Shown in pieces: positions 1 through 39,982 of a stretch of 46,534 bases of DNA. Origin of the DNA: a virus (lineage: Duplodnaviria; Heunggongvirae; Uroviricota; Caudoviricetes); the IMG/VR virus record IMGVR_UViG_2667527666_000009; one strand, written 5' to 3'. The notes under the pieces are model-generated. The model was not told the DNA's origin and did no database searches. It saw only the letters and a list, made by a program, of their open reading frames with translations. Made by a program: the position numbers and the translations under genes. Every line of letters begins with the position of its first letter. Position 1 is the stretch's first letter.

Positions 1-1284
1 TTACAGACTTCTGGAAGGTTGCGCAGCTCTTACAACACGCGGTTGATCTTCCGCAGCGTCTTCCAGCGCACTTAAATCACGGTCTTTCACCTCTGGCATT
101 TTCAGCGCAGAGATTAAACCAATCACTGAATATGCCATGATCATAATGGCGATCGGATACCAGGATTCCGTCATGGTGCAGAAAATACCCGCCAGGATAG
201 GACCAAAACCGGAAGCGATAAGACCACCAATTTCTTTAGAAATAGCCATCCGGGTAAAGCGGTTTTTACAGCCGAACATTTCTGCCATGGTAATGTTTTC
301 CAGAGCAAATAATCCCAGCACCGCACAGTTATGAATCACAATCAGTGCAACCATAATGGTGCTCGGGGCATAGCTTTTATCTACAATGATAGAAAGCATT
401 GGCCATGCCAGCACAATCGCGGAGGTATTCATAATAATATACGGGATCCGGCGACCAATTTTATCGGATAACCAACCAAGGAACGGAATGGTCATAAAGC
501 CGAGAATCGAACTGATCATCAATGCATCTGTTGGAATTGCTTTGTTAAACAATAACGTCTGCACTAAATAGCCTGCAAGGAAAGTCTGAATTAACCCGGA
601 GTTACCCGCCTGACCAAAACGCAGCCCTGTTGCCAGCCAGAAGGATTTGCTCTGGAACATGCTACCAGCAGGTGCAGGTTTTGCTGTCGGTTGGTTACTG
701 TCGTTAACCTTCTCAAAGACCGGGCTTTCTTTCAGATTCATACGCAACCAGATAGCAAAGACCATCACGACAACGCTCGCCAGGAACGGTATACGCCATC
801 CCCACGCCAGCAGTTCCTCTTTACTGAGAATGAAGAACATAAAGGCCCAGATTGCCGTTGCGCTCAAGGTTCCGCAGTTAGTTCCCATAGCCACAAATGA
901 GGAGATAATTCCGCGCTTACCTTTTGGCGCATATTCCGCCAGCATCGTACCGGCACCGGAAATTTCCGCACCTGCACCCAACCCCTGAATAATACGCAAC
1001 GTCACCAGCAAGATGGGTGCAAAAACACCAATCTGTGCATAGGTCGGTAACACACCAATTAAGGTGGTACAGATCCCCATCATGGTGATGGTAATAAAGA
1101 GCACTTTTTTACGCCCTATTCTGTCGCCCATTTTGCCGAAAATAAATGCTCCGACAATACGCGCCACATAACCTGCACCGTAGGTTCCCATTGCCAGAAT
1201 TAACGCCATTGCCGTTGATGATTCAGGAAAAAATATTTCATGAAACACTAACGCTGCGCCGAGCGAATATAACTGGAAATCCAT
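1..1284 (-). CDS. ydfJ: MFS-family transporter, host gene lacking its N-terminal region at the prophage boundary
   Basis: 427-aa ORF with MFS transporter character (many hydrophobic segments, GxxxDRxGRK-like motif); compared with sugar/shikimate-type MFS proteins the first transmembrane segment appears missing, consistent with interruption by prophage insertion. Confidence 0.75.
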   Translation of the reverse strand: MDFQLYSLGAALVFHEIFFPESSTAMALILAMGTYGAGYVARIVGAFIFGKMGDRIGRKKVLFITITMMGICTTLIGVLPTYAQIGVFAPILLVTLRIIQGLGAGAEISGAGTMLAEYAPKGKRGIISSFVAMGTNCGTLSATAIWAFMFFILSKEELLAWGWRIPFLASVVVMVFAIWLRMNLKESPVFEKVNDSNQPTAKPAPAGSMFQSKSFWLATGLRFGQAGNSGLIQTFLAGYLVQTLLFNKAIPTDALMISSILGFMTIPFLGWLSDKIGRRIPYIIMNTSAIVLAWPMLSIIVDKSYAPSTIMVALIVIHNCAVLGLFALENITMAEMFGCKNRFTRMAISKEIGGLIASGFGPILAGIFCTMTESWYPIAIMIMAYSVIGLISALKMPEVKDRDLSALEDAAEDQPRVVRAAQPSRSL

Positions 1285-2069
1285 AATTCACAGGTGTTTT
1301 TTCCCATCCTGTGGTTCCCTTGGCGTTTTCTAGGTTTTTTCAGATAGTTGCATTTTTTAAAAAGCATCCTGAGTTCGATCTCAGTGTCTATCTGGGGCCT
1401 ATTTCTGTCCCATATATGCCCCAAAAAAACTCCCCAACAGATAAGTGGTTTTTTCATGGATTTATGCGTAAAATCAAGAACGGCTGGAAATCATTCAATA
1501 CACACACTATCGAAAAATTTACCAGCCAACCGCAGCACGTTCTTGCATAAGGCGTGTCTGCGGTTTTTCAACTATTCAGATACATCACTCCCATCACATT
1601 CATTCCTCCGCATCAAAGGCATATAGGCTATATCACCTTGATATTTTTCTTCTTCAGATAAAAACTGTTATCTATGTATACTTTTAAACCCAATCCGTGT
1701 AGAGTCTCTGCATAAGATAGTTTGCAGTTGCCGCTTCAGCTTGCGCCATAAACCGCCTGATTTTTGCTGCCACCTGTTAGCATTCCTGTATACCTGAAAC
1801 GACAATGTTTATCTACGAACTTTAAGAACACCCAAGATAAAAATCGTCAACTATATCATATATAACACATTACTAATTCGAGGCTATATGAACAGCATAC
1901 TGATAATCACTTCTCTCCTTATCATATTCAGCATTTTTAGTCATGCCCTAATAAAATTAGGGATTGGCATATCCAATAACCCAGACAAAACCGATGTATA
2001 AGTCAACATATCCTGAATCAGACATACAATATCGCAATGAAAATCAATAATATTTTAAGGAATATCTTC

Positions 2070-2303
2070 ATGAAATCAAAAGACACCCTAAAGTGGTTCC
2101 CTGCGCAGCTTCCTGAAGTAAGAATTATCCTAGGGGATGCTGTAGTGGAAGTAGCAAAACAGGGAAGACCTATCAATACCAGAACATTGCTTGATTACAT
2201 TGAAGGAAACATAAAGAAAAAATCATGGCTGGATAACAAAGAATTATTACAAACAGCGATATCAGTTCTTAAAGACAACCAAAATTTAAATGGTAAAATG
2301 TAA
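2070..2303 (+). CDS. ydfK: small cold-shock-associated prophage protein YdfK/YnaE family
   Basis: ORF 2037..2303; internal ATG at 2070 preceded by AAGGAA; product MKSKDTLKWFPAQLPEV... matches recalled YdfK. Confidence 0.7.
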   Translation: MKSKDTLKWFPAQLPEVRIILGDAVVEVAKQGRPINTRTLLDYIEGNIKKKSWLDNKELLQTAISVLKDNQNLNGKM

Positions 2304-2618
2304 TATAATTAACTTACTTTTTTATCATTTTCCACTTTAACAACATTTTGCTCCACTTTTCCACGACCAAACAACTTGAAATCTGGTTAAAATAACACGC
2401 AACACTATTCTTCTTCCTTGAGTCCGCCTGGAACTCGAAAAACAAACCGAATTAAAGCCATTTTTCACAAAATCGATTTTGGGTCTCACCAAAATTACGG
2501 GGTTGCATACGCATTCGTTTATTTTCGAACGTGTACATACAAATATGCACAAAAATAATCAAAATTATTTTCTGAGATGCATTATGATATGAACACCAAT
2601 TTCGTATAGAGTCTCACT

Positions 2619-3209
2619 ATGTCTCGAATTTTTGCTTACTGTCGGATATCAACGCTGGATCAGACCACCGAAAATCAACGCCGGGAAATCGAAAGTGCAG
2701 GTTTTAAAATCAAACCTCAGCAAATAATCGAAGAACACATTAGCGGCTCAGCAGCAACCAGTGAGCGTCCTGGTTTTAACCGGTTGCTTGCTCGCCTGAA
2801 ATGTGGTGATCAATTGATTGTGACAAAATTGGATCGCCTTGGTTGTAATGCAATGGATATCAGGAAAACAGTGGAACAACTGACCGAAACAGGTATCAGA
2901 GTGCATTGCTTAGCATTGGGGGGCATTGACCTGACCAGTCCAACAGGAAAAATGATGATGCAAGTAATTTCAGCAGTCGCTGAATTTGAACGAGACCTTT
3001 TACTTGAACGCACTCATTCCGGGATAGTAAGAGCCCGGGGCGCAGGGAAACGTTTTGGTCGACCACCTGTGTTAAATGAAGAACAGAAACAGGTGGTATT
3101 CGAACGGATTAAGTCAGGTGTAAGTATAAGTGCCATTGCCCGGGAATTCAAAACCTCGCGGCAAACCATTTTAAGAGCCAAAGCAAAACTTCAGACACCT
3201 GACATATAA
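2619..3209 (+). CDS. pinQ: serine-recombinase DNA invertase (Pin/Gin/Hin/Cin family)
   Basis: 196 aa; N-terminal catalytic motif YCRISTLDQ (resolvase/invertase active-site Ser) and C-terminal HTH. Confidence 0.9.
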
Positions 3210-3436
3210 AAAATAATCTCGGTGTGAGATGCTTTACGTCTTCCAAGCCCCCTTCCTTGCCGTAAATGGAAAGATACATCTAATTATAGAATTTATATGT
3301 TTTACCCTACGGCAGTGCTGGCCATTCAATATCCTGTGCAGTTGACGTATCAACACGGTTCAGCAACACCCGATACTTTTTCCTGGCTTCCAGCAACGGG
3401 GTTTCTTCCTCCGTTGCATATACAGCTCACCTTTTT

Positions 3437-3730
3437 TCACCCACGATTAACCAACAGCCAGATCAGCAGACACGCCACCACCGGCACAGCAAAATCCATC
3501 AGGCTTGCCACATCCCAAACACGCGGATCAAAACCGCCCCACCACGGCATGTTAATCCGCTTGCCATGCCCGAACATTTCAATCCAGCGATATTCTGCCT
3601 GGGTGTGTTCACGCGCAATGAAGAACGTACAACCAGCTATCGCCCCATAAGCCCAGTTTCCGGTAAAAAGACCAACCAGTGTCTGCGCAGCCACAGCACA
3701 AAGCGCATGAAGAAAAGGTGTTATATCCAT
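3437..3730 (-). CDS. hypothetical small inner-membrane protein, last gene of the tail-fibre operon
   Basis: 97 aa with two or three hydrophobic helices; starts 11 nt after the upstream gene; no family recognised. Confidence 0.45.
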   Translation of the reverse strand: MDITPFLHALCAVAAQTLVGLFTGNWAYGAIAGCTFFIAREHTQAEYRWIEMFGHGKRINMPWWGGFDPRVWDVASLMDFAVPVVACLLIWLLVNRG

Positions 3731-3740
3731 TACTCCTCCT

Positions 3741-4445
3741 TTATCTAATATCGCTTCGGGAAGTTAATAACAACTTTAATTCTGACTCAAGTTCATCAAC
3801 TCTTTCAGTCAGTTTCTGGATATGGTGAATCAGTGGAACAACCAGACGTTCGTACATTACACCTTCGGCAACAAGGCCATTGCTGGAAATAGCTTCAGGA
3901 GCATCATCTTCGTTAGCTGGTCGCCAGTGTACAAACTGAGGAGCAATTTCTCCTACTTCCTCGGCAATCAATCCGTAGAATCCCCAGTCACGCCTGTCAT
4001 TTTCGCATTGCGACCTGTACCACACAGGGCGCATCCTGAAAATGAGATCGGCGTGCTCTGAATCTATTGTCTCTACTGAATGTTTATAGCGGATAGACGA
4101 TGTTGACCGCAGCACAGACGAAATTGCACGGTCAGGATTAAGATAAAGGTTTGCCGCCGCTGTAGTCGTGGCCAAATTCCATAAATAAAACGCTTCACGA
4201 CCTGTCAGTGGATAAAAATCTCCGCCATAACGACCACTTTCCAGATCGTTCACTTCCACTTTGTTTTTCAGCTTATTATCAACTTCAGTTTTTGTGTATC
4301 TGGAGCTGATATCCTGCTTTGCACTGGTCATCTCAGTCTGAAGCGTTGATACTTTTCTGCTAATTGATGAAATATCTTCCTTAGCTTTACTGACATCCCC
4401 CTTTAGCTTGGTGATATCTCCTGGAATTACTGTCGATGTAGCCAT
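3741..4445 (-). CDS. tail-fibre-like protein with coiled-coil N-terminus and peptidase-S74-type intramolecular chaperone domain
   Basis: 234 aa; N-terminal heptad-rich region (KLKGDVSKAKEDISSISRKVSTLQTEM) then a C-terminal segment resembling the autoproteolytic chaperone domain of tail spikes/fibres (SSIRYK..., GFYGLIAEEV..., terminal coiled coil). Confidence 0.6.
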   Translation of the reverse strand: MATSTVIPGDITKLKGDVSKAKEDISSISRKVSTLQTEMTSAKQDISSRYTKTEVDNKLKNKVEVNDLESGRYGGDFYPLTGREAFYLWNLATTTAAANLYLNPDRAISSVLRSTSSIRYKHSVETIDSEHADLIFRMRPVWYRSQCENDRRDWGFYGLIAEEVGEIAPQFVHWRPANEDDAPEAISSNGLVAEGVMYERLVVPLIHHIQKLTERVDELESELKLLLTSRSDIR

Positions 4446-7178: not shown

Positions 7179-7778
7179 TCAGAATTTATAACCGACACCC
7201 ACGATGAAACCGTCAGTGCGCCAGTCACCACTGCCGGAGCCTTCATAAGCAATATCAATGGCCACGGATTCGGTCGGGTTAAACTGCACGCCAGCTCCCC
7301 ACGCCAGAGACGTGTTGCTGTGGCGATCATCATCACTTCCGGTCAGCACATCGTGCGTTTTCCCCTTGTTGTCAGTTACGCGGAGATAATCCCCGGAGAA
7401 CGTCGAAACACGGCTGTAAGCCATACCTGCCATCGCATAAGCACTGAACCATTCATTCACGCGTACAGATGGCCCCGCCATCATGCTGAACCAGCGGTTA
7501 CGCACTGAATCTTCATGCCAGCGGGTATCGCTGTAATGCGTTTTTTGCTCATCTTTGGCATTGGCATAACTGAATGACGTCACCAGCCCCAGCGTGTCCG
7601 TAAATTCATAACGGTATTTCACGTTAATCCCGTTCAGATTATCGCTGCCGGGAACGTTCGTCGAGGCATGAAGATACCCCGCGCTCAGCGTGGACTGATG
7701 TTCAGATGCCCATGCAGGCGCACCGGATACGGCCAGACAAATGGCTGCGGACAAAATGGCGGCATAAAGTTTACGCAT
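7179..7778 (-). CDS. lom: Lom outer-membrane protein (Ail/Lom/PagC beta-barrel family)
   Basis: 199 aa with signal peptide, alternating beta-strand pattern and terminal aromatic residue (GVGYKF); position immediately downstream of J as in lambda. Confidence 0.85.
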   Translation of the reverse strand: MRKLYAAILSAAICLAVSGAPAWASEHQSTLSAGYLHASTNVPGSDNLNGINVKYRYEFTDTLGLVTSFSYANAKDEQKTHYSDTRWHEDSVRNRWFSMMAGPSVRVNEWFSAYAMAGMAYSRVSTFSGDYLRVTDNKGKTHDVLTGSDDDRHSNTSLAWGAGVQFNPTESVAIDIAYEGSGSGDWRTDGFIVGVGYKF

Positions 7779-33116: not shown

Positions 33117-33170
33117 TGAACCGCCCCGGGAATCCTGGAGACTAAACTTCCTGAGAAAGAGGTAAACAGG

Positions 33171-33497
33171 ATGACTAAAAATACTCGTTTTTCCCCCGAA
33201 GTCCGTCAACGGGCAGTCCGTATGGTTCTGGAAAGTCAGAGCGAATATGACTCACAATGGGCGACAATTTGTTCCATTGCTCCAAAGATTGGCTGTACGC
33301 CGGAGACTCTGCGTGTCTGGGTTCGCCAGCATGAGCGGGATACCGGGGGCGGTGATGGAGGGCTCACCACCGCTGAACGTCAGCGTCTGAAAGAGCTGGA
33401 ACGTGAAAATCGTGAACTGCGCCGCAGTAACGATATCCTTCGCCAGGCTTCCGCTTATTTTGCGAAGGCGGAGTTCGACCGCCTCTGGAAAAAATGA
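33171..33497 (+). CDS. IS629 transposase OrfA (HTH)
   Basis: 108 aa; [23 protein letters not shown]... matches recalled IS629 OrfA; ends at an A6 tract (33489..33494) where the -1 frameshift to OrfB would occur. Confidence 0.85.
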
Positions 33498-34384
33498 TGC
33501 CACTGCTGGATAAGCTGCGTGAGCAGTACGGGGTCGGACCGCTATGCAGCGAACTGCATATTGCCCCGTCAACGTATTACCACTGTCAGCAACAGCGACA
33601 TCATCCGGATAAACGCAGTGCCCGTGCGCAGCGCGATGACTGGCTGAAGAAAGAGATACAGCGCGTATACGATGAAAATCACAAGGTATACGGTGTGCGT
33701 AAAGTCTGGCGTCAGTTGTTACGGGAAGGTATCAGAGTGGCCAGATGCACTGTGGCACGTCTCATGGCGGTTATGGGACTTGCCGGTGTTCTCCGGGGTA
33801 AAAAGGTCCGTACGACCATCAGCCGGAAAGCCGTTGCCGCAGGCGACCGCGTAAACCGTCAGTTCGTGGCAGAACGACCTGACCAGCTGTGGGTGGCTGA
33901 TTTTACTTACGTCAGCACATGGCGGGGCTTCGTCTATGTGGCGTTCATCATTGATGTGTTTGCCGGATACATCGTGGGGTGGCGGGTCTCATCGTCCATG
34001 GAAACGACATTCGTGCTGGATGCACTGGAGCAGGCGTTATGGGCCCGTCGACCGTCCGGCACGGTCCATCACAGTGATAAAGGTTCTCAGTATGTATCGC
34101 TGGCCTACACACAGCGGCTTAAGGAAGCCGGATTACTGGCATCAACAGGAAGTACAGGCGACTCGTATGACAACGCGATGGCGGAGAGCATCAATGGTCT
34201 TTACAAAGCGGAGGTAATACACCGTAAGAGCTGGAAAAACCGTGCAGAAGTGGAACTGGCCACACTCACGTGGGTGGACTGGTATAACAATCGACGATTG
34301 CTGGAAAGGCTGGGCCATACTCCTCCGGCAGAAGCAGAAAAAGCTTATTATGCTTCCATCGGAAACGATGATCTGGCAGCCTGA
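33494..34384 (+). CDS. IS629 transposase OrfB (DDE integrase core)
   Basis: 296 aa in the -1 frame relative to OrfA; DDE-type catalytic region. Confidence 0.85.
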
Positions 34385-34718
34385 GTTCACAGATAAAACA
34401 CTCTCCAGGAAACCCGGGGCGGTTCACCACGAGTTTAACTGACAACCCATGATCAATTATGAATTGCAACTATTTCTGTAGTCACTTTTGTGGGGACAGT
34501 CCACAAAACTGCCAACTTCCGCTTCTTGCTCTTAGCGGACATTAGCATAGGCTATTTACCATAACGCCTCATTACGCGCACCGCCCAGACTGACTCAGCG
34601 CGTTTCTGGCATATCCCCGGTAAAACAAGTAACAAACCACCCGAAAATGAACACCAGAAACGCGACTTAAGAATCTACCCTATGAATGGATATGCACTCA
34701 ACCGAATCGATCTTGGTT

Positions 34719-36032
34719 TCAATCTTTTTTATCGGGATCAGGCTTCTTTTTAGGTAACTTCGGGGGCTTAACTTGCTGATGACTTTGCGTTCGGCGCGTA
34801 AGCCAGGGATGGTCAGCTTTAGGTTTAACATAGTATTTTGAGCGTAAATCAATACGGGCATTATCCACTCGTTCATGGACACTCTTTTCATCATCCAGTG
34901 GTATAGGCTCCGGGCCATCAACATACTTTTCCCAGCCCAGCGCTTTCCCGTCATACAGAACGTTAATTTCACCGTCAAAGTTCTCGCATACAGTAACAAC
35001 CGAATGCCTAAGTCGATATCCCCGGCCCTCACTGCGTACCTGAAACGCACTGCTTTTGTACTGGAAAGTGAGATTTTTAGACAGAACGCGCTTCGCCTGT
35101 AGGCTGAAGATATAACCCAGTTCCTCTTCAGAATGGTGCACATCAAGATGAGCATTATCAGTAGTACGAGGCGACGTAGCGAACCGGTTGTTATAGGCTT
35201 CAATAAAGGTCGGCAACCATGCATTTGCTGTTTCAATATCACTGATATTCTGAAGCCGCATTTCTTTGACCAGCCTGTCCTGTAGTGTCTGATTGGCGCG
35301 CTCTACCCGCCCTTTTGCCTGCGGGCTGTTGGCATGGATTGGCTCGATGCCCAGTGTCTTTATCGCACGAGTGAACTGGGTCAGCTCACCTTCCCGCTCT
35401 GGGTTATTTACCCTGAATATACTGTGTCTATCAGAGTAGAGAGCGAGCGGTACGCCATGATCATTAAGGTAACCCCGGAGGGTTTCCATGTAAGCCCGGG
35501 TTGTTTCAGCAGGCACAAAACGCAACGCCATCAACGCACTGGTGGCATCATCAATGAAAACGATCAGTGTACATCTGGGGCCTCGATTTTCAAACCAGTC
35601 ATGAGGTGAGCCATCAATCTGGATCAGTTCACCGTAAGATGGTCGTCGCATGCGGCGTTGATATATACGGGCAATTTTACGACGGCGTTCACGCCATAAC
35701 CCCTCTTCTATCATCCACTTTCTGAGAGTTTCAACGGATAAAGATAAACCGTGTATCTCGCGCAATTTTTCGCACGCAAACGTAGGTCCAAAATCAGCGT
35801 AACGGCCTTTGAGGAGTGAAATTACTGTTGCTCTGAATTCAGTAGAAAAGGAATTATTAGGACGCTTTCCACGTCGGTGGGAAACCAGACCAGAAGGCCC
35901 TTCATTTCTATACCGTTGCACCAGACGTTTAACCTGCCGAATAGAAATGCCAATGCGTGCCGCAGCTTGTTCCTGAATAATCTGAAGTCGGTGGAGTTCC
36001 TTATGACTCATCGTAACAGTCTCTTTGATCAT
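34719..36032 (-). CDS. single-ORF DDE transposase (HTH plus rve integrase core; IS481- or ISNCY-like)
   Basis: 437 aa; N-terminal HTH, central DDE region with D...D...E(x)K/R signature, basic C-terminal tail; element boundaries not resolved. Confidence 0.7.
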   Translation of the reverse strand: MIKETVTMSHKELHRLQIIQEQAAARIGISIRQVKRLVQRYRNEGPSGLVSHRRGKRPNNSFSTEFRATVISLLKGRYADFGPTFACEKLREIHGLSLSVETLRKWMIEEGLWRERRRKIARIYQRRMRRPSYGELIQIDGSPHDWFENRGPRCTLIVFIDDATSALMALRFVPAETTRAYMETLRGYLNDHGVPLALYSDRHSIFRVNNPEREGELTQFTRAIKTLGIEPIHANSPQAKGRVERANQTLQDRLVKEMRLQNISDIETANAWLPTFIEAYNNRFATSPRTTDNAHLDVHHSEEELGYIFSLQAKRVLSKNLTFQYKSSAFQVRSEGRGYRLRHSVVTVCENFDGEINVLYDGKALGWEKYVDGPEPIPLDDEKSVHERVDNARIDLRSKYYVKPKADHPWLTRRTQSHQQVKPPKLPKKKPDPDKKD

Positions 36033-36366
36033 GAAAAATCCCCCAGAGAATTGTCTGGGGACATTTTAGAATGGTTCAAAGGGGACATTACAGCTTGGTG
36101 TTAACAATAGCCTGCTTCTCCGTGCCTTTCGGCACGTAAGAGGCTAACCTACATGTGTCTAGCATGAAATTGGCCTCAGATTAATGTTAAGCGTCTTGCA
36201 GGACGCGTAATGTTAACTGGGGCTTTTCTCTATCTGCCGTTGGTGTCCATGCCCGAGGCAGATAGCCTCAAGCACCCGCAGTCATTCTACTTAACTAAGA
36301 TTTCCCCGCAAACCGTTTTTGTCCAGCACAGTAAATATCCAACTAAACCAATGGAGTTCGCTGTAT

Positions 36367-36546
36367 TTACCGCCAGTATTCAATGCACATGACCGCCATG
36401 AACACCCCTAAAAAAAGGGCATTTATATATCCAAATATTAATATCAAAACATCAACTTTTTCCATATACCTTGCTGTGAAGATGATGGGCATACATGATG
36501 CGAACAACCAGAACGCAACAAACAAAAACTGCAATGCGTTTTTCAT
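36367..36546 (-). CDS. hypothetical small two-helix membrane protein
   Basis: ORF 36367..36585; start at ATG 36544..36546 preceded by strong SD GTAGGAGGAATA; 59 aa, strongly hydrophobic. Confidence 0.5.
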   Translation of the reverse strand: MKNALQFLFVAFWLFASCMPIIFTARYMEKVDVLILIFGYINALFLGVFMAVMCIEYWR

Positions 36547-37698
36547 TATTCCTCCTACAATCAATGTGCAATTACATTTAAACACACCTCAATTTGGCCG
36601 GACATATAAATATCTAAACCAGAAAAAATCACTTACATAGCGTTACAAACTCTTTAGTCTAAAGGTTCATCGTAAAACATTCCCCATACTTATCAGTCCG
36701 TTCCGCGCCAGGTAGCTCATTGCCTTATCTGGCAACCTGTAATCAGGTTTCCGCTTTTTCAGTTGGCTGGTCGTTTAACCGACATAGTTAATCCATTAAT
36801 CTAGTTGCCGGATGTTGGTGGATTTTCGCGTTTTAGTTGTTCATAAAAGTGCACAGCTTTAACCAGTTCTTCTGATGTAACTGGGACTGGTGAGGCAGTG
36901 AATAAGGCCTGAATTTGATAGTTCGGCCTGTCGTTACAATCCTCTTTTTTCGGTACATATTTCCAGTCACCAGACCACTACTTCCCCTGAAAGTCCGTAA
37001 CGCCTTTTTTCACGTAGCGATATCGCCATGCCACTGGTTTTGCTTGCCCCGCCGTTTCATGCCCTTCCTGATAATTAATCTCGCTCATTCATCGCCCCAC
37101 TCATCACAATATGCTTCGACCGGAGTTTTTCCCGCTTCATAGTCATCACGCTAGGATTCGACATCAGCAGCACTTCCACCGCGTAACTCACCATAGTCCA
37201 TTAATAGTTCATCCCGCTCTTCAAAACTGATGTTATATTTAGCTGAACAAAAATCAGCCACTTTGTTCTTCCTCATCGTCTTTTATTTCGTGGTATGAGT
37301 AATTGCAGTAGTTAAAGAAAATTTCTTATGCTCCGTCATGAATTTCCTCAGGTGTTGCGTCATCGTCCACTTCGAATACATCCTCAAAATCTCCACCAGC
37401 TATTCCCGTTTCAATAATAATTTTGAACTTTCGCATTTCACTACCGCCCTTTCGGGCGGCCTCCTGATGTTCTGAGGGTGCAGAAATCCATCCGGTTAAG
37501 GATTAAATTTTATTTACAGAACTGAATTTAATTATTCAGATATACGTATCTGTAGCCTTACGAATCTACTCACTGGATGCCTCTTTCATAAAAATAATCC
37601 AGTGGGTTTTATCGTTTTTTCCCTGTTCGTTGACAGATAACAGGTTTTCTGTCTGTCAGTGCCAGAATCTGGCTTACCGGTATTTGCGTTTCATTCCA

Positions 37699-38055
37699 TT
37701 AAAAAATCAGAACGCCGTGCGGCCTCAACACCCGAAAGGCTTCTTTAAATCTCTGTCGCGAATCATCACGCCAGGCATCTTTATTCAGCCGTCCATATTT
37801 CTTTCCCATCCAGGCGTTATCACCAACACTCTCAAGATGCGGAGGGTCTAATACAACCATCGAAAAAGATGCGTCTGCAAATGATAATGCACGAAAATCT
37901 GCGATAATGTCAGGGCTGATAATCAAGCGTCTCCCATTGCGTAATGTGTATCCTTCTTTTCTGATATCGCTGAATATCGCCCGTTCGTCAGACTTATCGA
38001 ACCAGAACATGCGGCTGCCACAGCACATATCAAGAATGGTTGCCGGTGCACTCAC
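37699..38055 (-). CDS. SAM-dependent methyltransferase, probably C-terminally truncated
   Basis: 118 aa; motif-I-like DMCCGS and catalytic-type VLDPPH; stops shortly after a strand-5-like GVLIF; ATGA overlap with the upstream gene. Confidence 0.55.
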   Translation of the reverse strand: MSAPATILDMCCGSRMFWFDKSDERAIFSDIRKEGYTLRNGRRLIISPDIIADFRALSFADASFSMVVLDPPHLESVGDNAWMGKKYGRLNKDAWRDDSRQRFKEAFRVLRPHGVLIF

Positions 38056-38474
38056 TGCGCCACGTCCTGAAAATTACCCTGATAGAAAGCCAGTATGCGC
38101 TGCATAACTTCGCTCTTCCGGCACTCGCGACAGATTATGTTTAGGCGACTGTCGTAGCGACGTATTTCTCCGTCAGGTGATGACCAGATAAGGTCCGGAT
38201 CAACCACAGCAGGTTTCTTCACCTTTGCCCTCGAGAGTTTTTTGCGGGCGTTTTGCCAGTCCTTACGCGCCTGTTCAGAGGGGAATAACCCGTAGCCGGA
38301 GTTGTATACATCGCCACTGGCTACCAGCTCTCTGGCAAGAACGCTCATCAGATATCTAGTCGCACCTGTTTTAGCTTCCAGTTGCCGTAACGTCTCACGG
38401 CCGCTCTGGCGCACGAGTTCCACCACCTGCCATTTAATTTTTTCCCGCTCTTCTTGTGTAAAAACTTTTGCCAC
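38052..38474 (-). CDS. hypothetical protein, possible winged-helix DNA-binding protein of the replication region
   Basis: 140 aa; translationally coupled to the downstream methyltransferase gene; no confident family. Confidence 0.4.
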   Translation of the reverse strand: MAKVFTQEEREKIKWQVVELVRQSGRETLRQLEAKTGATRYLMSVLARELVASGDVYNSGYGLFPSEQARKDWQNARKKLSRAKVKKPAVVDPDLIWSSPDGEIRRYDSRLNIICRECRKSEVMQRILAFYQGNFQDVAQ

Positions 38475-38514
38475 AAGTCCCCCTTAAAATTACCTCATGA
38501 CCTGAAATCAACAC

Positions 38515-39480
38515 TTATCCTCTGAAACCAGGCGGAATTTCTGTATCCGGTTCAGAAATATGATTAACACAACGCTGTACAGGTGAACGTCCCAGGCGGA
38601 TGACCAGTTCGTCCCATTTTTCGCGGAGCTTTGACGGGCTCATGATGTTTTTTACCCAGAATGGATCTCGCTGAACCCGACCAAACATTTCGCAAATTTG
38701 TCTGTGGCTTCTGCCATCCAGCATCCGCATTGTGCGCACGTCATTGGCCCAGGCAGTCCAGTTAGGCTCTTTTGGTCGCATGATCTCGCCATCATCACTG
38801 GCTGCCTGTTCGTAGAGACCCACGATCCGCCCCCAGATCCACTGCGCACACGCCAAATCCTCCCTGCTACCCCACTGGCGTTTTTTCGCACTAAACACAA
38901 CCGCGTCGGAGTTCCGGGTTAAAAAATCCTGTTCAGTCGTCTGCGGGTCCGGTTGCGAAGCTTCCGGACGAAAAGTGTTTTTATTCTCTGTAGTAATCTC
39001 TGTTGTATTCTCTGTAAGATCATCAGGCCATTTTGACCCGATGACATTGGGTCGTTTTGAACCAATGGAGCGTTTCATTTTGACCTCTTCCATCGTGTCA
39101 TTTTGACCTGATGGAGCGGCGCATTTTGAACCGATGGATTCGCTCAATTTGCCACCATCTAAAAGCTCGCTCCCATAGTTGATCGTGTAGAAATTGGTCA
39201 TATCGCGCTTTGATTTATTGAGCTTTTCACAACGCAAAAGCCCCAGCGTTTTCAGACTTACAAACGCGCGCTTTAACGTTGACTCTGACCAGAATGGGAA
39301 CTGTTCCAGCCATTGTTCCGTTGTGTTATAAATCCAGCGAACACCATCACATTCCATGCCGGAGTTGGTATCTCTCAACCAGTAGTGCAGTTGTTGCAAA
39401 ACAATGGCTTCGTTTAAGCCAATTTTCATTGCCAGCTGCGTGTTTATAACCAGTGGGCGTTCAGCAAAAAGAAGGCTCAT
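38515..39480 (-). CDS. phage replication initiator / replisome organiser (O-like)
   Basis: ORF 38515..39534; start taken at ATG 39478..39480 (MSLLFAERPLV...); N-terminal HTH replisome-organiser-like region; position downstream of cro-like and cII-like genes. Confidence 0.6.
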   Translation of the reverse strand: MSLLFAERPLVINTQLAMKIGLNEAIVLQQLHYWLRDTNSGMECDGVRWIYNTTEQWLEQFPFWSESTLKRAFVSLKTLGLLRCEKLNKSKRDMTNFYTINYGSELLDGGKLSESIGSKCAAPSGQNDTMEEVKMKRSIGSKRPNVIGSKWPDDLTENTTEITTENKNTFRPEASQPDPQTTEQDFLTRNSDAVVFSAKKRQWGSREDLACAQWIWGRIVGLYEQAASDDGEIMRPKEPNWTAWANDVRTMRMLDGRSHRQICEMFGRVQRDPFWVKNIMSPSKLREKWDELVIRLGRSPVQRCVNHISEPDTEIPPGFRG

Positions 39481-39982
39481 AATTCCATCCAGCTTTTTGT
39501 TGGTATTGCTGTCGATACGCAAGTTTGAAAGCAATTGCTTTTTCTATAAGTTCGTCAGTTTCACGATCCACTACGGCAGGATCAGCAAAAAGCAGTCCGG
39601 ACTCCACCACATCGCCATATTCTTTGTTTAACCCGGCGATCATGCACGTGATGCTTTTTCCGTCAGTAATTTCACGATACAACCTGAAATCATTAATCCG
39701 GATAGCCTCCATAATTGCAGGCACTAGCGCCGTGAACTTTTCACGCTTATCCCTGGTGTCGATAGCCTTCCAGCGTTCAAATATCTTCACTCGATTAACG
39801 CCAAGCGCTCGCTGATCAATCGCGCCACCTTCATATGTGACACGCTGAACATCGATGTTCGGGCGCTCTTTCAAAGCCCAGAATGCTTCAGTGATTAATA
39901 TCGTCGCCTGCTCCTGTGTCATTCCTGGTCGACATATCCAGGCATCCAGAGCCTCACGAGCCTGTTCAGGAGTGATTTTCAT
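39461..39982 (-). CDS. YdaT-like protein (CII-analogue position)
   Basis: 173 aa; segment DTRDKREKFTALVPAIMEAI resembles YdaT-family proteins; immediately downstream of dicC. Confidence 0.5.
   Translation of the reverse strand: MKITPEQAREALDAWICRPGMTQEQATILITEAFWALKERPNIDVQRVTYEGGAIDQRALGVNRVKIFERWKAIDTRDKREKFTALVPAIMEAIRINDFRLYREITDGKSITCMIAGLNKEYGDVVESGLLFADPAVVDRETDELIEKAIAFKLAYRQQYQQKAGWNYEPSFC

Follow-up and report, generated by a model that had tools for sequence, protein, structure and literature searches.

A decayed Qin-type prophage segment and a hok/sok locus cut at its start codon by an IS1202-family transposon

Introduction

What lies between the transposase gene and the replication genes of a Qin-type prophage, when almost every reading frame there is broken, and what broke them? 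The question arises for positions 36033 to 38055 of the window, the whole 46,534-nucleotide stretch of viral DNA analysed here. A reading made from the sequence alone had taken this segment to be different, partly eroded cargo that may include a membrane-toxin-like gene, at a position where K-12 Qin holds rem, hokD, relBE, and flxA. The segment is a non-essential accessory region of a Qin-type lambdoid prophage, reaching from the replication genes to the late-gene antiterminator, and we hold with considerable confidence that the best explanation of it is a stretch of Qin DNA with four dead genes and a hok/sok locus beheaded by an IS1202-family transposon.

Results

Four pseudogenes follow one another on the minus strand between 36670 and 38055, as found by tblastn against intact orthologues and by profile searches, which bears out the earlier observation that only short ORFs interrupted by stops occupy this region. 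The first, at 36670-37088, derives from a prophage protein of about 171 aa (WP_001289994-like; tblastn with the intact L079 and L081 proteins) and contains a TAG at 36978-36980, which is the in-frame TAG previously noticed near 37000, together with a second in-frame stop, a frameshift near 36771, and a 30-codon deletion; RefSeq labels the stretch 'frameshifted; internal stop' in ATCC 8739 and IAI1. Beside it, at 37088-37261, the gene for a 58-aa acidic protein (81-83% identity in tblastn with the intact L003 and L079 proteins) is stopped at W36 and starts with GTG where its homologues have ATG. The gene for a 60-aa DUF7167 protein at 37257-37436 (Pfam PF23768, phrog_1997, tblastn) has an in-frame TAA in place of K37 and is 88% identical to intact homologues by tblastn; the profile match is limited to residues 2-31, the intact protein of about 60 aa is absent, RefSeq flags an 'internal stop', and the 36-aa acidic ORF that had been described at 37326-37436 is simply the first 36 codons of this gene. 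The fourth pseudogene, at 37569-38055, is that of a phage DNA methyltransferase of about 178 aa, recognised by phrog_954 and by a read-through comparison with its Stx2c-phage homologue. Its ORF at 37699-38055 had been seen to end abruptly at 118 aa, and it does: a TAA stands where the full-length homologue has K119, 29 codons past it are still homologous in frame, and a frameshift follows. The ORF spans positions 52-165 of 229 in phrog_954 and retains, as read from the sequence, the SAM-binding region (DMCCGS) and the DPPH motif; the full-length catalytic domain is absent, and RefSeq flags the gene in IAI1 as 'frameshifted; internal stop'.

Three of the four broken genes have intact orthologues that keep this order in other prophages of E. 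coli (L079, L081, and L003), at 65-88% amino-acid identity, and every lesion was placed against them, the fourth gene, the methyltransferase, being compared with the Stx2c-phage homologue (L004). Because the lesions can be located against intact orthologues in the same order, the decay cannot be put down to stop codons scattered by chance. The 2,023-bp segment is present to at least 80% of its length in 371 or more complete E. coli genomes, the best-matching ones being 100% identical, so the lesions are old and inherited and are no sequencing errors. It could be argued that the in-frame stops are programmed, through read-through or recoding, or are assembly errors, and that the genes are functional, given that three genes each have a single clean stop in otherwise well-conserved sequence. 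However, the same bases recur in independent complete genomes, at least 371 of them; both TAG and TAA occur among the stops, which are joined by a 30-codon deletion and by frameshifts; a search showed no recoding signal; and RefSeq calls the genes pseudogenes, so that functional genes are almost certainly the wrong explanation.

The search against prophage proteins that recovered these broken genes left a single survivor, ORF59 (36367-36546, minus strand). As the sequence-only reading had it, this is an intact gene for a 59-aa two-helix membrane protein with a near-perfect Shine-Dalgarno sequence, AGGAGG at 36551-36556, 4 nt ahead of the ATG; its hydrophobic stretches are residues 5-24 and 33-55. 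A paralogue (P0042/P0037) is also 59 aa long and aligns without gaps at 41% identity (pN 0.34 against pS 0.72), and a variant (P0045) is 78% identical. The close alleles (L003 and L079-L082) differ at only four variable sites, all non-synonymous, and are uninformative on coding selection, so the usable signal of such selection comes from the distant paralogue and not from them. An unbroken frame, together with a paralogue of equal length that aligns throughout, makes it probable that ORF59 is a real gene. It has no family match in Pfam, PHROGs, NCBIfam, or PADLOC; an Rfam search for a paired antisense RNA gave no match over the ORF, a simple promoter scan flagged no sigma-70 site for it, and tblastn of phage genomes returned near-identical copies only. 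Its relatives are solely unannotated 59-aa proteins of E. coli, which points to a small, never-annotated family of membrane proteins in 1,000-1,500 E. coli genomes. An 85-aa ORF on the plus strand at 36383-36640, called 'hornerin' or 'hypothetical' in phage records, has no family match, overlaps ORF59 on the opposite strand, and was set aside.

Comparison with fuller Qin prophages bears on whether this is foreign cargo at the K-12 position of rem, hokD, relBE, and flxA, with the 59-aa protein possibly a toxin. Much in the window invites such a view: the genes are eroded, rem to flxA are missing, and ORF59 is small and hydrophobic and has a strong Shine-Dalgarno sequence. Yet in ATCC 8739 and IAI1 those genes lie beyond the transposase and the segment is present too, the two thus being on opposite sides of the transposase, and a 4.8-kb deletion, corresponding to window positions 34904-39702, has removed the whole segment from K-12; the positional claim about K-12 is already refuted. 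The erosion stands, and the difference does not: this is standard Qin DNA, the same in hundreds of strains. With ORF59 matching no toxin, defence, or phage family, the view as a whole is very unlikely, and the membrane-toxin idea fell on the wrong gene: the toxin relic here is the hok/sok locus at 36107-36311, whose toxin ORF is gone.

The window is without rem to flxA, and its relBE transposon is truncated, because a 1310-bp IS3-family element at 33117-34426 (plus strand; delimited by comparison with L001) has replaced L001 positions 287-4391, from inside ydfT (the Q antiterminator) to downstream of flxA. The element includes an ALIL frameshift pseudoknot at 33452-33568, and copies 100% identical to it, annotated 'IS3 family transposase', are present on many plasmids; the deletion joint has no single contiguous match in complete E. 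coli genomes. The segment has also been reshaped by module exchange, with a mosaic boundary at 37540-37568 in blastn of the window against L003 and L004: up to 37539 the segment is homologous to vB_EcoS-640R1-type prophages, and from 37569 on to the methyltransferase module of the Stx2c phage. An identical segment is carried by phage PhiR42_1, a Qin-like prophage, on which a literature search gave no match, and some prophages (L009) have the whole segment deleted.

The toxin relic at 36107-36311 is what remains of a hokD-type locus: a putative promoter, the leader, the start of mok, and sok (Rfam sok, 104 bits). The 5' leader of the hok mRNA, with tac, the mok start, and the Sok target, occupies 36107-36277 on the minus strand; RF01794 matches 36106-36277 on that strand over all 157 positions of the model with 104.1 bits (gathering score 59; E 7e-24), and the match terminates at the IS boundary. 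The leader is 96% identical to that of an intact locus. The Hok toxin frame of about 50 aa is absent: the IS end at 36106 cuts after the 'AT' of the ATG, and the displaced hokD copy (2607-2762 in L001) falls within the stretch deleted from the window. The mok frame is lost as well, with about 19 native codons left and a 25-aa ORF (36088-36165) that runs into the IS, and the 3' fold-back (fbi) element, the partner of the 5' end in base pairing, is missing with the rest of the 3' part of the locus. A putative hok promoter (TTGCGG, 16-nt spacer, TAGAAT; 36284-36311, minus strand), placed by position and consensus, precedes the 5' end of the leader by about 7 nt, and its hexamers and spacer are the same in L079-L082 and L003. 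The putative orphan sok gene (36122-36233, plus strand), assigned by alignment and fold, begins with GTGCCT at 36122-36127, a 17-nt spacer, and TAACCT at 36145-36150, which we take to be its promoter from a position-for-position alignment with the sok promoter of plasmid R1. The predicted Sok RNA, from about 36157 to 36233, folds at -32.8 kcal/mol (z -4.4) and contains a long terminator hairpin with a tail rich in U, the hairpin region being the same as in intact loci. A simple promoter scan flagged no sigma-70 site for hok or sok, so both promoters are set only by their position relative to conserved hok/sok features. Weak Rfam matches to the ceN48 snoRNA and to a second plus-strand 'sok' (E 0.2-0.3) were dismissed as chance. 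From the remnant, Sok RNA and a shortened hok leader transcript could still be made, but no Hok.

Such an orphan sok might have been kept for a function, its RNA guarding the host against the Hok of incoming or co-resident hokD-type prophages and plasmids (anti-addiction). The putative promoter, RNA body, and terminator of sok are intact and lie entirely outside the insertion, and the junction is conserved across hundreds of genomes. The conservation can, however, be attributed to recent common descent, because the whole 2 kb is identical, pseudogenes included; Sok recognition of intact alleles is uncertain, because the leader departs from them at many positions in its mok and Sok-target part; and some prophages (L009) do without the whole segment. 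We consider retention for this purpose unlikely.

The element that cuts the hok locus is the left part, IRL and transposase, of an ISEsa1-like transposon of the IS1202 family (34424-36106, minus strand; 99.9% identical to L001 4392-6074). Its transposase ORF (34719-36032) encodes 437 aa, of which 436 are identical to an intact 446-aa plasmid copy, the window's protein being 9 aa shorter through an in-frame deletion within its N-terminal HTH region. On NF033594 (ISNCY family transposase) the intact copy reaches 465 bits, PGAP gives it the name 'IS1202-like element ISEsa1 family transposase', and the window's transposase has HTH and rve matches in Pfam, as in a DDE type with an N-terminal HTH. 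The terminal inverted repeat IRL (36081-36106, minus strand; TGTTAACACCAAGCTGTAATGTCCCC on the gene strand) is found as a 26-mer at the junction in L001, L006-L012, and many more loci, and it pairs at 19 of 26 positions with IRR (GGTGACACTTCTGCTTTGCGTTGACA, beside relE in L001 and K-12), both starting with TGT. As candidates for an internal right end of a 1.6-kb IS, the best sequences matched IRL at 15 of 26 positions and had no duplication, and the outer IRR, with 19 of 26 and a duplication, was preferred. Simple 1.45-kb relatives in Hahella and Rhabdochlamydiaceae have homologous ends and 15-16-bp duplications. A terminator-like hairpin and T-run at 36040-36061 (minus strand), found by a pattern scan, reaches the transposase ATG and, by analogy with other IS elements, may keep transcription that starts at the hok promoter from running on into the transposase gene.

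Directly outside IRL, at 36107-36121 (minus strand), lies one copy of a 15-bp target-site duplication, GGAGAAGCAGGCTAT, made up of the hok Shine-Dalgarno sequence and the 'AT' of the hok start codon. The same 15-mer follows IRR immediately 5' of the hokD ATG in ATCC 8739, IAI1, Shigella, and K-12. Both states of the site are represented: phage vB_EcoS-640R1 (L003) and genomes L079-L082, the last of them EC958, have the leader, a single GGAGAAGCAGGCTAT, and an uninterrupted hok ORF, and the filled site of L001, L008, L022, and K-12 reads leader, duplication, IRL to IRR, duplication, hokD. Complete copies of the element are 3.3 kb long and hold IRL, transposase, flxA, ydfV, relB, relE, and IRR, and 99%-identical copies of this length are present on plasmids of Salmonella, Enterobacter, and E. 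coli, with an intact one on the Salmonella plasmid pSA20064858.1 (L006). Size variants range from 2.4 to 7.3 kb, with relBE beside IRR in all of them and an IRL-transposase module of about 1.55 kb common to all. Of the 15 loci that match RelE over its full length, 10 have RelB and RelE 100% identical to those of K-12, and in the other five the identity is 93-99%. The duplication spans 15 bp in Qin; at nine further sites that were resolved in full it spans 13-16 bp. The window is missing flxA, ydfV, relB, relE, and IRR, a complete mobile copy being absent; because the far part of the transposon and hokD are deleted and the transposase has its 9-aa deletion, nothing here is expected to be mobile or toxic any more.

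The element family is found at the same position in different hok-family loci in at least 20 independent insertions, against 14 sites elsewhere. Overall there are about 30 distinct hok-type flanks and those 14 other sites, so that about two-thirds of distinct sites are hok and about one-third are not, a preference that is strong and not exclusive; with the Qin junction excluded, a metagenome scan placed 24 of 34 contigs at hok start regions. These counts are of surviving insertions, and selection (for toxin-disarming events or on successful plasmids) could inflate the hok share. In eight loci the full-length Rfam leader match stops exactly at IRL. The duplication at each filled hok site is built from the local hok allele, for example GGAGAAGCAGGCTAT in Qin, TGGAGGGGCTATGAT in IncI pndA, and GATATGCTGACAAA and GATGTTAGCCATG in Kluyvera, with others as well. 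All hok-type insertions share one orientation except that in L026, which is opposite. A (G)GCAA motif is conserved just before the start of the duplication and the far cut falls at the ATG; at non-hok sites and in distant relatives, too, CAA or GCAA stands just outside the duplication. At the hok sites of L011 and L027 there are tandem junctions of the form IRR, 15 bp, IRL.

These patterns could reflect something other than target choice, either a single insertion spread by homologous recombination or random insertions kept where they inactivate a toxin. Sequence flanking the site on either side is indeed shared among hok loci, many contigs represent one event (58 of 60 IMG/VR junctions are Qin's), and survivorship bias is possible in genome data. 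Against both forms, the duplications vary, matching the local allele on either side; the junction offsets differ by 1-8 nt, even in one allele (where the sequence breaks off after ...GGCCA, ...GGCCAT, or ...GGCCATG); and CAA or GCAA recurs outside the duplication at non-hok sites and in distant relatives. Recombination, moreover, would have to join pndA, hokD-type, and hokE-like loci, which are too diverged for it, and selection for hok inactivation would allow any position and either orientation within about 400 bp, whereas all hok-type insertions but L026 sit at the same few nucleotides in one orientation. We therefore judge this alternative quite unlikely. Target choice is preferred: the element family appears to recognise the translation-initiation region of hok and to direct its insertion there. 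The fuller proposal is that ISEsa1-type transposons are "hok hunters", with a transposase directed to hok starts, a (G)GCAA anchor about 15 bp from a cut at the ATG, capture of the toxin behind relBE in one step, and an orphan sok left behind; we see it as evenly poised between right and wrong. A literature search found no report of a hok target preference.

Discussion

The junction explains the relB-relE-hokD arrangement of K-12. A transposon of the ISEsa1 sub-group of the IS1202 family went into the ribosome-binding site and start codon of hok, duplicating 15 bp and shifting the hok coding sequence 3.3 kb, to immediately downstream of relE. Such an insertion would remove hok's own promoter, mok, and Sok control, and would put hok under the promoter repressed by RelB/RelE; in the window, the IS3-family element later removed the far part of the transposon and hokD. 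The relB-relE-hokD operon is explained because the element with relE, relB, ydfV, and flxA lies between the two copies of the duplication. This fits the description, as available in later citing work, of a hokD without its own sok/mok leader that is co-transcribed with relBE (Gotfredsen & Gerdes 1998, cited in PMC5120126), and an integration of relBE into the hokD/mok frame has been noted, again as given in a citing source (Ramisetty & Santhosh 2016, cited in PMC6379469). The K-12 relB-relE-hokD (relBEF) locus is the other half of the same event: in it, relE is still followed by IRR, the 15-bp duplication, and the ATG of hokD, and what is gone is IRL, the hok leader together with sok, most of the transposase, and the whole segment; the window keeps precisely these lost parts and has in turn lost relBE and hokD. 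In those portions of the literature on K-12 relBEF that were available, we found no description of an IS1202-family vehicle with inverted repeats and a 15-bp duplication. The junction thus accounts for the much-studied E. coli relBE genes sitting before a hok toxin gene that is without its regulators.

Other chromosomal hok/sok loci have been disabled by insertion sequences, including hokA, hokC, and hokE of K-12. Work of Pedersen and Gerdes from 1999 reportedly places IS150 and IS186 insertions near, not in, the hok frames, at no common position. The cut described here is different: it hits the start codon, and it does so in many hok alleles.

PGAP places the transposase in the ISEsa1 family, and ISEsa1 is listed in ISfinder with 1609 bp, inverted repeats of 15/22, no TSD, and a 439-aa transposase. 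The elements delimited here differ in having 2.4-7.3 kb, inverted repeats of 19/26, and 13-16-bp duplications, and we infer that the 1609 bp and the 'no TSD' of that entry reflect a missed right end. The ISEsa1 branch, for which the literature lists 'no detectable TSD', thereby gains defined ends, a 15-bp duplication, and a preferred target, and the last of these suggests a testable rule of target choice. Within the IS1202 family, the ISAjo2/ISAba32 sub-group, which targets dif/pdif XerCD sites, likewise inserts in a fixed orientation and keeps a fixed spacing to a short conserved site, likewise has several insertions per site, and has passenger genes in some members; the tandem junctions of L011 and L027 resemble the multiple insertions at ISAjo2/ISAba32 xrs sites. 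That sub-group has another type of transposase, however, and duplicates 5-6 bp rather than 13-16 bp, and its target is a Xer site, whereas the target here is the translation-initiation region of a type I toxin.

If the "hok hunter" proposal is true, the K-12 relBE (relBEF) locus would be a truncated product of such an insertion, the IS1202 family would have a second, mechanistically distinct case of site-specific targeting, and one addiction module would be parasitising another. The junction itself shows a type II toxin-antitoxin module riding a transposon by which type I toxins are repeatedly disarmed and captured, on plasmids and in prophages across the Enterobacteriaceae, with a bearing on plasmid-stability systems and on the reading of toxin-antitoxin loci in genome annotation.

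The decay of the segment is, by itself, ordinary erosion of non-essential prophage genes and of no importance. In the decaying 'nin-like' or moron regions of cryptic lambdoid prophages, small early genes likewise collect stops and frameshifts next to intact neighbours, and mosaic exchange of modules is found there too, as at the 37540-37568 boundary, with no unusual difference here.

A hok locus split by a transposon

The value of segment 36033-38055 lies in the junction at 36081-36121 rather than in the segment's ordinary decay: there an IS1202-family transposon with relBE as cargo has split a hok locus and left the half with sok orphaned. On the minus strand, 36106-36277 fits the Rfam sok model, actually a model of the hok mRNA leader, over the whole model length (104 bits), and phage matches at query positions 75-298 bear the annotations hok, mok, and sok. 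Upstream of the leader is a predicted hok promoter (TTGCGG, 16-nt spacer, TAGAAT; 36311-36284, minus strand), and on the plus strand is a predicted sok gene, with promoter hexamers at 36122-36150, an RNA from about 36157 to 36233, and a stable terminator hairpin (-32.8 kcal/mol, z -4.4); intact loci share identical promoter hexamers and an identical sok hairpin region. The hok reading frame is absent from the window, where the leader, ending in GGAGAAGCAGGCTAT, passes straight into TGTTAACACCAAGCTGTAATGTCCCC, the terminus of the transposase-bearing element. This remnant would yield Sok RNA and a truncated leader at most. The sequence-only reading had suspected a toxin in the segment, an idea attached to the wrong gene: it overlooked the hok/sok relic and pointed to a 59-aa two-helix membrane-protein ORF (ORF59; 36367-36546, minus strand), which matches no toxin, holin, or defence family.

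The insertion can be read from the intact locus of phage vB_EcoS-640R1 (L003) aligned with ATCC 8739 (L001), in which L003 3001-3648 corresponds to L001 6075-6721 and L003 2753-3016 to L001 2512-2776, two blocks sharing a 15-16 bp overlap. At the upstream junction GGCAC and GGAGAAGCAGGCTAT are followed by TGTTAAC, and at the downstream junction GCGTTGACA is followed by GGAGAAGCAGGCTAT and then G AAG CAG, the start of hokD. The 3,298 bp between the junctions in ATCC 8739 contain the transposase, flxA, ydfV, relB, and relE, are bounded by left and right inverted repeats (IRL and IRR; 19/26 match, TGT start at both), and lie between two copies of a 15-bp direct repeat consisting of the hok SD and the 'AT' of the start codon. 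K-12 lacks IRL but retains IRR together with the repeat and the ATG of hokD. Transposon insertion with a flanking repeat therefore gives a physical explanation of the relB-relE-hokD operon and of hokD's missing leader. Co-transcription of relBE and hokD is known (Gotfredsen and Gerdes, 1998, as cited in PMC5120126), and integration of relBE into the hokD/mok frame was noted earlier (Ramisetty and Santhosh, 2016, as cited in PMC6379469); we found no paper describing the transposon that carried relBE into hokD.

In the window, the element is reduced to IRL (36081-36106) and the transposase part (34424-36106 in all). The transposase (34719-36032, minus strand), whose gene RefSeq divides into 'ISNCY transposase, incomplete' and 'ydfW', is here one 437-aa ORF, and the Qin form has lost, by an in-frame deletion, 9 aa (SINRHITQE) of the N-terminal HTH region that plasmid copies retain. 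A terminator-like hairpin at 36061-36040 ends at the transposase ATG and, on the model of other ISs, would stop read-through from the hok promoter. We infer that nothing mobile or toxic remains in this remnant of the element.

Identity and ends of the element

PGAP names the transposase 'IS1202-like element ISEsa1 family', and the ISNCY transposase model matches it at 465 bits. Ends in the IS1202 family begin with TGT, and its sub-groups are defined by duplication lengths of 5-6, 15-17, and 27-28 bp; ISEsa1 has been described as 1609 bp long, with inverted repeats matching at 15/22 and an undetectable duplication, and as forming its own sub-group (Harmer and Hall). Element variants have about 1.55 kb from IRL in common, then carry divergent cargo to a total of 2.4-7.3 kb, and all terminate in relB-relE-IRR. 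Distant relatives in Hahella (62% amino acid identity) and a Rhabdochlamydiaceae genome (50%) are simple ISs of 1.45 kb, present in multiple copies (L031-L041 in Hahella sp. and L047-L066 in a Rhabdochlamydiaceae MAG; lengths 1449 and 1466 bp), with duplications of 15-16 bp and ends homologous to both IRL and the outer IRR. We conclude that the true end of the element is the outer IRR. The description of ISEsa1 as 1609 bp without a target duplication appears to have overlooked it.

Recurrent insertion at hok starts

Relatives of this transposon strike the same hok-locus nucleotides repeatedly. The same element is found at the pndA start on a Salmonella IncI plasmid (duplication TGGAGGGGCTATGAT), and at hok starts on Enterobacter and Citrobacter IncF-type plasmids (GGAGAAGAAGGCCA and GGAGAAGAAGGCCATG); further hok-family alleles in species-representative genomes, among them a Kluyvera hokE-like gene (GATATGCTGACAAA), have the same insertion place, each with its own duplication. 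Full-length Rfam leader matches stop exactly at IRL in eight loci, and none was found beside IRL in non-hok loci. Most IMG/VR junctions (58/60) represent the single Qin event, the others being one pndA-type and one other junction; in a metagenome scan designed to leave out the Qin junction, 24 of 34 contigs were at hok start regions, and their junction offsets differ by 1-3 nt even inside one allele, a sign that hits were repeated and independent. The pooled data give about 30 distinct hok-type flanks, counted as at least 20 independent events, versus 14 distinct sites elsewhere.

Since the duplications agree with the local allele and the junction offsets vary, recombination is an unlikely route for the spread of the element among hok loci. 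Except in L026, the transposase always points the same way as hok. Selection by itself would not hold insertions to a few nucleotides and a single orientation; survivorship bias may contribute. The targeting itself may reflect local sequence: the duplication begins immediately past the conserved (G)GCAA of the hairpin preceding the hok SD, several non-hok sites have the same GGCAA, GGCAT, or GCAA ahead of the duplication, and in most copies from Hahella and Rhabdochlamydiaceae CAA directly borders it on the side of IRL, suggesting a weak target motif throughout the family. For neither the split hok locus nor the recurrent hits on hok did we find a report in the searchable literature, although absence there is not proof of novelty.

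Some junctions have other arrangements. At L026 5887-5926 (Citrobacter portucalensis), IRL abuts the reverse complement of the hok duplication and hok start (GGAGAAGAAGGCCATGAAACTGCCG), which could represent either an insertion oriented oppositely to every other one at a hok site or an inversion. Head-to-tail junctions at L011 (~3083-3125) and L027 (~7529-7600) consist of IRR, a 10-15-bp hok-derived spacer, and then the IRL of that same element or of an IS1202-family relative; they resemble tandem insertions into a duplicated target or integrated circle junctions. Some Qin-like prophages (L009 5637-5710; also eight contigs of IMG/VR, among them L089, L092, L097, and L110) have lost the whole 'decayed segment', and GGCAAGGAGAAGCAGGCTAT and then IRL directly follow the 3' end of the DUF977 gene, a joint apparently formed by way of a short microhomology (GCCGGAAGGCA) to the hok hairpin.

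Decay of the segment and comparison with K-12

The window is a fairly complete E. coli Qin-type lambdoid prophage with dicA/dicC immunity, DicF, dicB, csp, and structural genes, and the minus strand is the operon strand across the segment. The 2,023-bp segment occurs at 100% identity in many complete E. coli genomes; at least 371 genomes contain at least 80% of it, and the deposited phage PhiR42_1 has it too. The features listed in the sequence-only reading were all found, and its interpretation of decay is right but ordinary, with lesions mapped against prophages that have intact versions in the same gene order (L003, FDAARGOS_1259, AVS0754, and EC958) and against an Stx2c-phage methyltransferase homologue. 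On the minus strand, the pseudogene of a roughly 171-aa protein (36670-37088) carries two stops, one of them the TAG at 36978-36980, along with a 30-codon deletion and a frameshift near 36771; that of a 58-aa protein (37088-37261) has a stop in place of W36; and that of a 60-aa DUF7167 protein (37257-37436), the head of which had been listed as a 36-aa acidic ORF, has a stop in place of K37. The 118-aa 'methyltransferase' ORF spans positions 52-165 of the 229-position phage DNA-methyltransferase profile; its terminal TAA corresponds to K119 of the full-length Stx2c-phage homologue and is followed by 29 further in-frame homologous codons and then a frameshift. RefSeq flags this gene as 'frameshifted; internal stop' in strain IAI1 and already marks two pseudogenes within the segment in ATCC 8739. 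Homology to the L003-type prophage extends up to 37539 and that to the methyltransferase module begins at 37569, a mosaic joint. Within the 171-aa pseudogene, an indel of ~43-57 bp relative to phage vB_EcoS-640R1 (36754-36796) is adjoined by a plus-strand terminator-like hairpin (AACCTGTAATCAGGTT, then a T-run) at 36734-36760.

K-12 Qin (L005, MG1655 1641000-1650500) aligns with the window to 34903 and resumes at 39703, and K-12 has therefore lost 4.8 kb equivalent to window 34904-39702. This deletion took most of the transposase, all of the segment with its hok leader and sok, ORF59, and the four pseudogenes, the DUF977 and O-like replication genes, and part of the ydaT-like gene; judged by the coordinates, ydfW and ydfX are its two stumps, namely the C-terminus of the transposase and the front end of the ydaT-like gene. 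The earlier claim that this position holds rem, hokD, relBE, and flxA in K-12 is wrong, because rem, hokD, relE, relB, ydfV, and flxA lie beyond the transposase in fuller Qin prophages (ATCC 8739, IAI1) and their side is replaced here by an IS3-family element; nor is the cargo different. The 1310-bp IS3-family element (33117-34426; joints 33119/33120 and 34423/34424), with ORFs of 108 and 296 aa and an ALIL frameshift pseudoknot, takes the place of ~4.1 kb of Qin between a point within ydfT, the Q-antiterminator gene, and one downstream of flxA; from its size we presume a likeness to IS629/IS1203. No target duplication is visible at this element, and a search of 5,426 complete E. coli genomes did not recover its exact joint as a single contiguous stretch.

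The ORF59 family

A 361-bp block around ORF59 is present at 95% identity or more in 1,570 of 5,426 E. coli genomes, with no annotated gene in it among the 40 records listed. An exhaustive HMMER search found a gap-free 59-aa relative with 41% identity, conserving W13, SC17-18, PII20-22, FG38-39, NAL42-44, GVF47-49, IE55-56, and WR58-59. Its commonest form (P0042; L084 6001-6180) occurs in 1,045 E. coli genomes, where ttcA and uspF flank it; in B2-type strains such as Nissle 1917, ST131, and ATCC 11775 it belongs to a prophage-remnant island at the Rac attachment region. Among the records listed, this locus has no annotated RefSeq gene. Between the ORF59 and P0042 genes, pN is 0.34 and pS 0.72, and codon position 2 has the fewest differences; a family variant at 78% identity also exists. 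The gap-free relative, the conserved residues, pN below pS, the sparing of position 2, and the 78%-identical variant together support the view that ORF59 and its relatives are a real protein family.

Close ORF59 alleles have only four variable sites, all non-synonymous, in its 180 bp, compared with 14 in 154 bp upstream and ~25 in the 171-bp hok leader. The block at 36326-36600 that includes ORF59 is far less variable between prophage lineages than its flanks, which could reflect either constraint or recent module exchange.
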